Source: a virus (Duplodnaviria; Heunggongvirae; Uroviricota; Caudoviricetes). From it: a stretch of 10,989 bases of DNA. Positions 8,757-9,213 of this stretch are shown here, piece after piece. Numbering within the stretch: position 1 is the stretch's first letter; the number at the start of each line of letters is the position of its first letter. Made by a program: the position numbers and the translations under genes. Location: the IMG/VR virus record IMGVR_UViG_2526164603_000035. One strand, written 5' to 3'. The notes beneath the pieces were generated by a model, which had not been told where the DNA came from, ran no database searches, and was given only the letters and a program-made list of their open reading frames with translations.

Positions 8757-8837
8757 CGTTTCTTTGATGGACTTCCATCCGTAAAAATCAAATTTTGAGA
8801 AAAAGTACTTATAGAAATTAATCGCTCTATAAGGATA

Positions 8838-8950
8838 AGTTGACGTTAGTTTAAAGTGATAAAACATTAAAGAAAAAACGTAAAATCAAATACATAAAAT
8901 AAGTCACCAAGGGATCATTTTCAGAAAACAACGTCAACGTAACGTCAACT
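8838..8950. repeat. Perfect 11-bp inverted repeat AGTTGACGTTA (8838-8848) / TAACGTCAACT (8940-8950), plus an adjacent direct copy of ACGTCAAC (8931-8938) spaced about 11-12 bp from the second arm
   Basis: Read directly from the sequence, within an AT-rich non-coding stretch. Confidence 0.6.
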
Positions 8951-9123
8951 CTGTAAGAACTTTTTTGGTCACTTTTTGGGTTGAATGTACGTAAAAATCC
9001 CCAGCAGTGAAATTTGAGCGCGTAAGCACAATTCTGAGGGGCTTTTTGTCTGTAGGTTAGGCAGTGTAACTAACAATACAAGAAGTTAGCTCTGACTAAC
9101 TATTTAATTAACTTTTCAATCTA

Positions 9124-9160
9124 ATTGCGTTAGATATTATACCCTAACGCAATATTTTTA
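9124..9160 (+). terminator. Hairpin with T-run (10-bp perfect stem ATTGCGTTAG/CTAACGCAAT, 10-nt loop, then ATTTTTA)
   Basis: Seen in sequence about 55-90 bp beyond the stop of the 470-aa minus-strand gene. The T-run is on the plus side, so it may terminate plus-strand transcripts and act more weakly for the convergent gene. Confidence 0.35.
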
Positions 9161-9213
9161 ATTCAATAATGTCTGTAAATTGTTATTACTTATAATTATA
9201 CATTTAACTATAT

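Follow-up and report, generated by a model that had tools for sequence, protein, structure and literature searches.

The non-coding stretch at positions 8545-9213 of a 10,989-nucleotide DNA (IMG/VR virus record IMGVR_UViG_2526164603_000035, the whole of which is called the window here) lies directly downstream of a truncated gene for an HUH-type rolling-circle replication protein (Rep). The window was found to be Escherichia coli O157:H7 chromosome at the tRNA-Arg(CCT) gene argW (tRNA at 3449-3520, Rfam scan). The stretch holds a block of short motifs that is conserved in islands at argW and, in part, in small Klebsiella plasmids. We give an even chance to the reading that this block is a double-stranded protein-binding array, most likely the leading-strand origin region of the replicon. 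A wider proposal is made more tentatively, at somewhat less than an even chance: block and upstream palindrome would together be the origin of an undescribed HUH-Rep replicon family, comprising cryptic Klebsiella plasmids of approximately 5 kb and an argW island that captured int and alpA and occurs in approximately 10% of complete E. coli genomes. The island would excise, replicate as a rolling circle and carry the cargo of defence hotspot #11, with insertion points that flank or split the origin. The findings point to an uncharacterised plasmid-derived island family that brings the defence cargo to an E. coli hotspot already known. The elements of the stretch and the genes beside it are as follows (positions in the window; strand where one applies).

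7849-8544, plus strand: rep fragment, truncated HUH rolling-circle Rep, C-terminal 231 amino acids
8545-8671: region A, GC- and purine-rich, non-coding, linked to Rep type
8619-8650: region A hairpin, GCGC..CGCGGC-AAAC-GCCGCG..GCGC (-24.9 kcal/mol, z -3.7)
8672-8848: block B, the most conserved non-coding segment
8675-8681: ACGGTCA, directly before the palindrome
8684-8696: palindrome AGCGC-ATC-GCGCT (RGCGC-nnn-GCGCY), 3-nt centre free to vary, A.T to G.C compensatory change
8737-8753: block B core AAAGTCTTAGAAAAAAA, inside block B
8754-8759: TGACGT, inside block B
8766-8774: GATGGACTT, inside block B
8781-8792: GTAAAAATCAAA, inside block B
8808-8815: CTTATAGA, inside block B
8838-8848: AGTTGACGTTA, inside block B, left arm of the inverted repeat
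8849-8929: spacer C, AT-rich, sequence free, length conserved
8930-9004: block D, phased repeats and short motifs
8930 and 8941: AACGTCAAC phased repeats, inside block D, consensus C[G/A]TCAAC
8950-8957: TCTGTAAG, inside block D
8959 and 8971: two copies of ACTTTTT(T)GG, inside block D
8990-8999: CGTAAAAATC, inside block D
8999-9052, plus strand: right edge of the conserved block, with a weak, unconserved long-loop hairpin and a T-run at 9043-9047
9053-9213: cargo-specific flank, with a hairpin at 9124-9153 followed by TTTTT at 9155-9159
9214-10626, minus strand: cargo gene, 470-amino-acid protein (ECs_3238 of strain Sakai)
10813-10989, minus strand: small acidic backbone open reading frame (ORF) of 58 amino acids, conserved right of the cargo slot, with the resolvase gene next, past the window end

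Conservation of the block among argW islands

An earlier note on this DNA had described 8757-9213 as a long, AT-rich, non-coding region between convergent genes. The low GC content (0.32-0.34, compared to 0.45-0.50 upstream), the non-coding character and the convergence of the rep fragment and the 470-amino-acid ORF were all found as described. The bounds were not, as the non-coding DNA extends over 669 bp from the triple stop of rep. Nor does 8757-9213 form one unit: positions 8757-9052 belong to the conserved block, and the last 160 bp (9053-9213), with their good hairpin, are cargo flank.

Intact relatives, among about 20 loci fetched for comparison (L numbers below), form an island of approximately 10 kb at argW in E. 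coli, E. albertii, Klebsiella and Citrobacter; in E. coli its bounds are the tRNA gene and a repeat, 23 nt long, of the 3' end of the tRNA. The island encodes, from the left, a tyrosine integrase, an ORF overlapping the int stop, AlpA, a 63-amino-acid ORF and a 64-amino-acid helix-turn-helix (HTH) protein. These are followed by a 128-amino-acid protein (p128), a 350-amino-acid 'rolling circle replication-associated protein', approximately 500 bp of non-coding DNA and a variable cargo; the right end is formed by a small acidic minus-strand ORF and a serine resolvase. The full-length rep gene stands immediately upstream of the block in intact islands and in the plasmids described below. The block was carried by 543 of the 5426 complete E. 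coli genomes, always at yfdC-argW...dsdC/csc.

When the window was aligned with L011 and L012, identity was 60% in rep and in region A, 89-94% in block B, 45-48% in spacer C and 69-76% in block D. Across loci, spacer C was 39-66% and block D 69-92% identical. Past approximately 9052 identity to other loci fell to 21-35%, with partial similarity to L002 up to about 9085. The inter-motif distances of 26 and 58 nt were invariant. All E. coli types had 125-126 nt between ACTTATAGA and the first phased repeat; Klebsiella, with 114 nt, was shorter by 11-12 nt, or about one helical turn. Three copies of GTTGAYGT, at 8839 on the plus strand and at 8931 and 8942 on the minus strand, surround a spacer of conserved length and low GC content (0.26 over 8816-8931). 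The motifs, when sought in related elements, kept a fixed order and spacing in the islands of E. coli, E. albertii and Klebsiella. High, low and again high identity with kept spacing indicates selection on short motifs and their geometry, for which a simple recombination tract is a poor fit.

We regard it as very unlikely that the stretch is non-functional AT-rich filler, conserved through recent recombination and hitch-hiking with neighbouring genes. The backbones are indeed mosaic, L011 and L012 pairing a type-1-like block with a type-2 rep (breakpoint near 8672), and the O157 copy is certainly a relic. In contrast, the identity profile within one molecule with its kept spacer length, and the motif order and offsets kept in plasmids with proteins 24-48% identical, are hard to account for without selection.

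Both repeats reported in the earlier note were present exactly as claimed, namely a perfect 11-bp inverted repeat (AGTTGACGTTA at 8838-8848 and TAACGTCAACT at 8940-8950, arms 91 nt apart) and the direct repeat of AACGTCAAC with a period of 11 bp. In 1000 dinucleotide shuffles, an inverted repeat of at least 11 bp occurred in 59, a short-period direct repeat of at least 9 bp in 52, and some 8-mer in at least three copies in 169. On sequence comparison, the significance of the repeats rests on their conservation in relatives and not on single-sequence statistics. Two pairings were rejected: a functional hairpin formed by the inverted repeat of CTTATAGA and TCTATAAG (8808-8833), the right arm of which decays in L012 and L017 and is absent in L007, and long-range pairing of the 11-bp inverted repeat, which has a C.A mismatch in L004-type loci. 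Operators common to the block and other island sites were likewise rejected, as only chance-level 10-mers recurred.

Plasmid relatives of the island

Rep was found in 16 Klebsiella/Enterobacter plasmid records at 24-29% identity. The plasmids were reached through the Rep protein, and the island block itself had no nucleotide match in PLSDB at E<=1e-5. Three complete circular Klebsiella plasmids of 5.4-5.7 kb, without a replicon type and typed as non-mobilizable, were compared. Their order (HTH, p126, Rep, non-coding DNA, cargo where present, small ORF, resolvase) is the order of the island, and plasmid and island proteins are 24-48% identical; HTH, p128 and resolvase hold 39-48% identity, compared to 24-28% for Rep.

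Block B (approximately 8717-8813) was the only non-coding DNA that could be aligned between island and plasmids, under permissive scoring, and was 66-78% identical, compared to 58-63% at best for coding segments. Counted from the invariant core AAAGTCYTAGAAAAAAA (8737), every island and every plasmid has GAWGGRCWT at +29 and CTTATA at +70/71, and the spacing from TnTRTAAG to GTAnAAAT is 41-42 nt in both. ACGGTCA and the palindrome are conserved in E. coli islands and in all three plasmids, the palindrome lying at -53 from the core in the former and at -44 in the latter, which show a compensatory change from A.T to G.C. Two copies of TGACGTTA are found in pL021, and pL022 has one behind its cargo. 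The two plasmids that lack cargo have the block unbroken between the rep stop and the small-ORF stop, and 11 PLSDB records carry it.

Further upstream, both Rep lineages retain the stems of the region A hairpin, with a compensatory change of one pair from C-G to G-C, and the plasmids carry analogous GGCGG-TTTCA-CCGCC hairpins. Two strong GC hairpins (8612-8660 and 8672-8705) stand just 3' of the rep stop, outside the coordinates of the earlier note. Several independent rearrangements fall at or within approximately 15 nt of the GGTCA at 8677-8681, these being a 2-nt deletion in the window, a variant in L017/L018 and the breakpoint of the L011/L012 lineage. The cargo junction of L007 is also near, about 15 nt further right.

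A leading-strand origin is proposed because an array of short motifs surrounds a constrained AT-rich spacer, 3' of the initiator gene, in plasmids and islands alike and by a resolvase. The resolvase, with res-like repeats adjoining, fits a replicating circle. We infer that the block fires as an origin and that Rep binds there.

The Rep protein

Rep keeps the HUH (HxH) motif in EPHVHAII and the conserved tyrosine in IDYMAK. The full-length homologue matched Pfam family PF23343 (REP_ORF2-G2P), as did all distant relatives, and there were weak matches to Helitron_like_N and RepSA. A Pfam search gave no helicase or primase domain in Rep, no phage was found to encode it, and a sequence search gave no relatives in the PDB. 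Its relatives are few, with 29 cluster representatives among 1.84 billion at E<=0.001.

Evidence against an origin and candidates for the binding protein

As in a rolling-circle double-strand origin (dso), the block stands beside an HUH initiator gene and is found on autonomous relatives. Several observations weigh against this reading. The sequence of blocks B and D does not co-vary with Rep specificity, as that of a dso would: B and D hold 69-94% identity between Rep lineages sharing 50%, and B holds 66-78% between lineages sharing 25%. Copies of the repeat differ independently of one another at the C/T position. Klebsiella island L007 lacks the palindrome at 8684-8696, and within the window alone the repeats barely exceed chance (p about 0.05-0.17). 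The AlphaFold model of Rep was unusable (predicted local distance difference test score 38). The block has no sequence similarity to any characterised origin. Finally, the plasmids have a second non-coding region of approximately 680 bp, absent from islands, which could be the true origin.

That second region lies at 1152-1834 of L023 (pMB7964_2) and is shared by L021 and L022; when aligned together with the adjoining HTH gene, it shows a conservation of about 92-98% among the plasmids. It folds as single-stranded DNA far above shuffles (z -3.1) with several long perfect hairpins, and is a better candidate than the block for a lagging-strand (single-strand) origin, or a candidate RNA gene. As single-stranded DNA, blocks B to D gave z-scores of -0.85 to +0.63, that is, no single-strand structure of the kind expected of a single-strand origin, and a duplex binding array is therefore favoured for them.

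The earlier note had suggested protein-binding sites or an origin remnant for the adjacent Rep-like ORF. Comparison favours this reading; Rep is a candidate binder, but the repeats do not co-vary with Rep type and only region A tracks it. A different backbone protein may thus be what binds, or the origin itself may be in region A or in the second region of the plasmids. Two simpler patterns were ruled out. Repeat type does not track Rep type, L004 having a type-1 Rep with CATCAAC repeats and L017 having TGTCAAC, and the two repeats do not change in concert, L007 having one of each kind.

Binding of a better-conserved backbone protein (the 64-amino-acid HTH protein, p128, the small acidic ORF product or the resolvase) for copy control, partition or multimer resolution is accordingly a reading to be weighed, and we hold it to be rather unlikely. 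The motifs are kept where Rep falls to 24-28% identity and HTH, p128 and resolvase hold 39-48%; the block lies between rep and the small ORF and resolvase in cargo-less plasmids; and block D has two haplotypes that travel with two small-ORF types. This linkage could equally be explained by plain co-inheritance, however, and the small ORF product is acidic, with no DNA-binding domain above threshold. Moreover, upstream of its gene the resolvase has a separate set of repeats, GTCTCAATnGGGT, a motif that is absent from the block, and the 10-mers of the block are not repeated at other island promoters.

Coding and RNA readings of the stretch

A degraded coding sequence in relatives, named in the earlier note as a finding that would speak against binding sites, was not what the relatives contained, where frame-breaking indels and a lack of codon periodicity were seen. 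A 69-amino-acid ORF at 8547-8756 was rejected as a gene, since indels of 1, 2 and 7 nt interrupt it in relatives, it is unannotated in Sakai and it had no Pfam match. A 47-amino-acid minus-strand ORF at 8724-8867 was rejected as well, its variable columns being spread 11/10/10 over the codon positions, that is, without periodicity.

A small-RNA gene, also suggested in the earlier note, was not borne out: 8545-9213 had no Rfam match at E<=1 (the scan of the window gave only the argW tRNA and two sub-threshold matches elsewhere), no promoter was conserved, and the candidate terminator at 8999-9047 was unstable and unconserved. The long-loop hairpin at 8999-9041 with its T-run at 9043-9047 is present as had been described. 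Its stability (-11.8 kcal/mol, z +0.67) is that of shuffles, and its stem is not conserved, so that 8999-9047 falls short of an intrinsic terminator; the T-run itself is partly conserved among aligned loci. The perfect 10-bp stem further right (ATTGCGTTAG at 9124-9133, CTAACGCAAT at 9144-9153, then A-TTTTT with the T-run at 9155-9159) was confirmed in full and is very stable (RNA z -5.8 on the plus and -4.3 on the minus strand; single-stranded DNA z -3.3). Judged as a terminator, 9124-9159 has four GC pairs and U5 on the plus strand, but a 10-nt loop and no call by a consensus scanner, and there is no U-run on the minus strand. The hairpin at 9124-9153 is likely a plus-strand intrinsic terminator, by which read-through from the rep side would be kept out of the cargo gene.

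It is quite unlikely that the block as a whole is a transcriptional boundary or RNA element, whether as terminators or insulators between the rep operon and the cargo or as a small RNA ending at 9043-9047. The convergent genes, the partly conserved T-run at the right edge and the terminator-like hairpin at 9124-9159 would suit such an element, and a promoter resembling TTGACG...(17-18 nt)...TAcATT can be drawn by inspection in some loci. That promoter is not conserved in L004, L011 and L012, however, and a promoter scan called none within 8757-9100. The hairpin at 8999-9047 decays in relatives, the good one lies in cargo-specific DNA, and conserved spacing of short motifs around a free spacer finds no explanation at the RNA level. 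Identity with Esr41 or another known small RNA of enterohaemorrhagic E. coli (EHEC) was rejected, Esr41 being in O-island 43. The flanking genes (ECs3236-3239) and the Sakai coordinate prefixes tried (31983-31985 in one search, 31982-31984 in another) are not mentioned in the supplement text searched of two EHEC small-RNA studies, on Hfq and RNase E.

Comparison with known origins and islands

A dso of the pMV158 type consists of a nic hairpin and a 'bind' locus of 11-bp direct repeats approximately 84 bp away. The island and plasmids resemble it in the HUH initiator alongside, in GC hairpins near the rep end followed by distant repeats phased at 11 bp, and in the small cryptic plasmids. In contrast, there is no sequence similarity, Rep here belongs to PF23343, the repeats lie approximately 250 bp from the hairpins, comprise only two copies and an inverted one and show no co-variation with Rep, and the nick site here is a candidate one.

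In Staphylococcus aureus pathogenicity islands and phage-inducible chromosomal islands (SaPI/PICI), the origin reportedly has iteron sets around an AT-rich region directly 3' of rep, and the SaPI initiator is of the helicase type. The block shares with them its position 3' of a replication gene in an AlpA-type island and repeats of one motif on either side of an AT-rich spacer; it differs in that the Rep here is an HUH nickase and not a helicase/primase, and in that there are few repeats, with opposite orientation on the two sides of the spacer. The plus-strand origin of the filamentous phage Ff is an intergenic region with a gpII nick site, binding repeats and an AT-rich enhancer, and that region has extensive single-strand hairpins. 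Likeness to it lies in the Pfam family of Rep, which includes G2P, and in a long, partly AT-rich non-coding region of many elements by rep. The island differs in having no phage structural genes, a Rep found in no phage, and a block without single-strand hairpins of the Ff style.

Actinomycete integrative elements of the pSAM2 type carry int, xis and the RepSA rolling-circle initiator. As in these, the island integrates site-specifically at a tRNA gene and has a rolling-circle initiator for replication after excision, and distant Rep relatives weakly match RepSA. The phylum is another, there are no transfer genes here, and no sequence relation extends beyond the HUH motif region. Phage-inducible chromosomal minimalist islands (PICMI) of Vibrionaceae have a primase, integrate next to fis and have been shown to be packaged by a helper phage (PMC10803314). 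The argW island has in common with PICMI its small size and large non-coding regions, int, an int-overlapping gene, alpA, a replication gene and a defence hotspot. It differs in its HUH Rep in place of a primase, its resolvase and its autonomous plasmid relatives, and no helper phage is known for it. Judged by sequence, neither block nor island is a member of the pMV158, SaPI/PICI, Ff, PICMI or pSAM2 groups.

The resemblance of the island layout to PICMI satellites bears on a further reading, which we consider unlikely, that the block is a site of horizontal transfer, either an origin of transfer nicked by Rep as a relaxase or a pac/cos-like signal of a satellite that hijacks a helper phage. 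Rep gave a weak match to Relaxase (MobA/VirD2) at E 0.0055, below cutoff, and defence islands with only an integrase have been suggested by Hochhauser et al. to be possibly uncharacterised satellites (PMC10121019). In contrast, mimicry of a phage cos or pac site was rejected because the block resembled none of 50,697 phage records even at E<=10; Rep is in no phage, and a 35-nt degenerate pattern of block B had no match in JGI metagenomes or IMG/VR contigs. Packaging and coupling genes are absent, and the related plasmids are typed as non-mobilizable.

Proposed mechanism and exchange of cargo

The replicon would exist in two forms, as the autonomous 5.3-5.7-kb Klebsiella plasmids and, after fusion with a module of int, the int-overlapping gene and alpA, as the argW island. 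AlpA and Int would first drive excision of the island. The HUH Rep encoded upstream might then nick near the conserved ACGGTCA and palindrome or the block B core, the candidate nick sites being 8675-8696 and 8737-8753. The array of TGACGT(TA), GTAAAAATC and phased C[G/A]TCAAC could assemble Rep, host architectural proteins or both on double-stranded DNA, and the adjacent resolvase would resolve multimers. The need to keep the block would account for the positions of the exchangeable defence cargo.

Cargo stands right of the block in most E. coli. In the islands of Klebsiella and Citrobacter it stands to the left, separating region A from block B, and in plasmid pL022 it splits the block. The block is therefore backbone, and 9053-9213 cargo flank. 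The cargoes include SIR2, GapS6a/b, an HNH gene set, a DpnII-like enzyme, AIPR, a ParA-family protein, an AAA ATPase and pairs of unknown proteins; in O157 the cargo is the 470-amino-acid ECs_3238.

The yfdC-argW-dsdC locus is E. coli defence hotspot #11 (dsdC-yfdC, tRNA_Arg_CCT) in the supplement of Hochhauser et al. 2023 (PMC10121019), who left open how many integrase-bearing defence islands move. The element at this hotspot has a plasmid-type replicon (HUH Rep, an origin-like core and a resolvase with a res-like site) and free-living plasmid relatives. Such a replicon gives a concrete, testable mechanism for excision and replication of the island, and the conserved flanks between which defence genes are exchanged are now defined.

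Some further observations were made on the insertions. In L007, the 1.6-kb HNH-containing Klebsiella cargo is flanked by a 9-bp direct repeat, TGAGCTAAC (9189-9197 and 10827-10835 of that locus). Three copies are seen in the locus, compared to 0.12 expected, which hints at targeted or microhomology-mediated insertion between A and B. Three copies of GTCTCAATnGGGT, two direct and one inverted, lie at 14650-14790 of L001, just past the right end of the window, in the highly conserved spacer between small ORF and resolvase, and look like a res site or resolvase operator. IS3-family insertion elements have entered decayed or intact islands independently at differing points (L020 5342-6570, L001 10339-11552, L018 3162-4390), and in strain Z1323HEC0010 one is inserted exactly at the right edge of the conserved block (approximately 9030 in window terms).

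The O157 copy and other features of the window

The O157 copy is a non-functional relic of a decayed plasmid-derived island, and 'remnant', as the earlier note had put it, is apt. Approximately 119 N-terminal residues of Rep are missing, because all that lay left of Rep residue 120 or so has given way to a P22-like remnant (intS, injection proteins, tail needle), and the reading frame ends in TAG TAG TGA. With the Rep N-terminus gone, the site in O157 is a relic. The 901 bases around the stretch were 100% identical in more than 300 O157:H7/O55:H7 genomes. In Sakai, the counterpart of 8545-9213 is NC_002695.2 3198138-3198806, between ECs_3236 ('phage replication protein') and ECs_3238, and is annotated within 'prophage Sp16; P22-like'. 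The right third of 'prophage Sp16' is hence not P22-derived but a decayed island of the argW type. ECs_3238 had no Pfam, NCBIfam or PADLOC match and fills the slot in which other strains carry defence systems. Its gene lies between the arms of an imperfect 23-nt inverted repeat (78%; 9118-9140 and 10643-10665), possibly by chance in AT-rich DNA.

Window positions 1-3448 are the end of a lambdoid prophage abutting argW, with a tyrosine integrase (2084-3328, minus strand), an MT-A70 methyltransferase fragment and DUF1382. This prophage is at argW only in some O157:H7 strains (such as 9000 and Z1615), Sakai having yfdC there, so that tandem insertions flank argW both ways in such a strain. Within it, 1773-1895 (plus strand) gave a sub-threshold Rfam match to HgcC (25.6 bits, compared to a gathering score of 50; E 0.013) and contains a good hairpin, CCACGTCCTTTAGGGCGTGG. 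A P22-type DNA-injection protein is encoded at 5017-6153 (minus strand). The C-terminal third of this ORF is an AT-rich (GC approximately 0.28) hydrophobic tail with a weak Acyl_transf_3 match, and the ORF is apparently chimeric, at a deletion or recombination joint.

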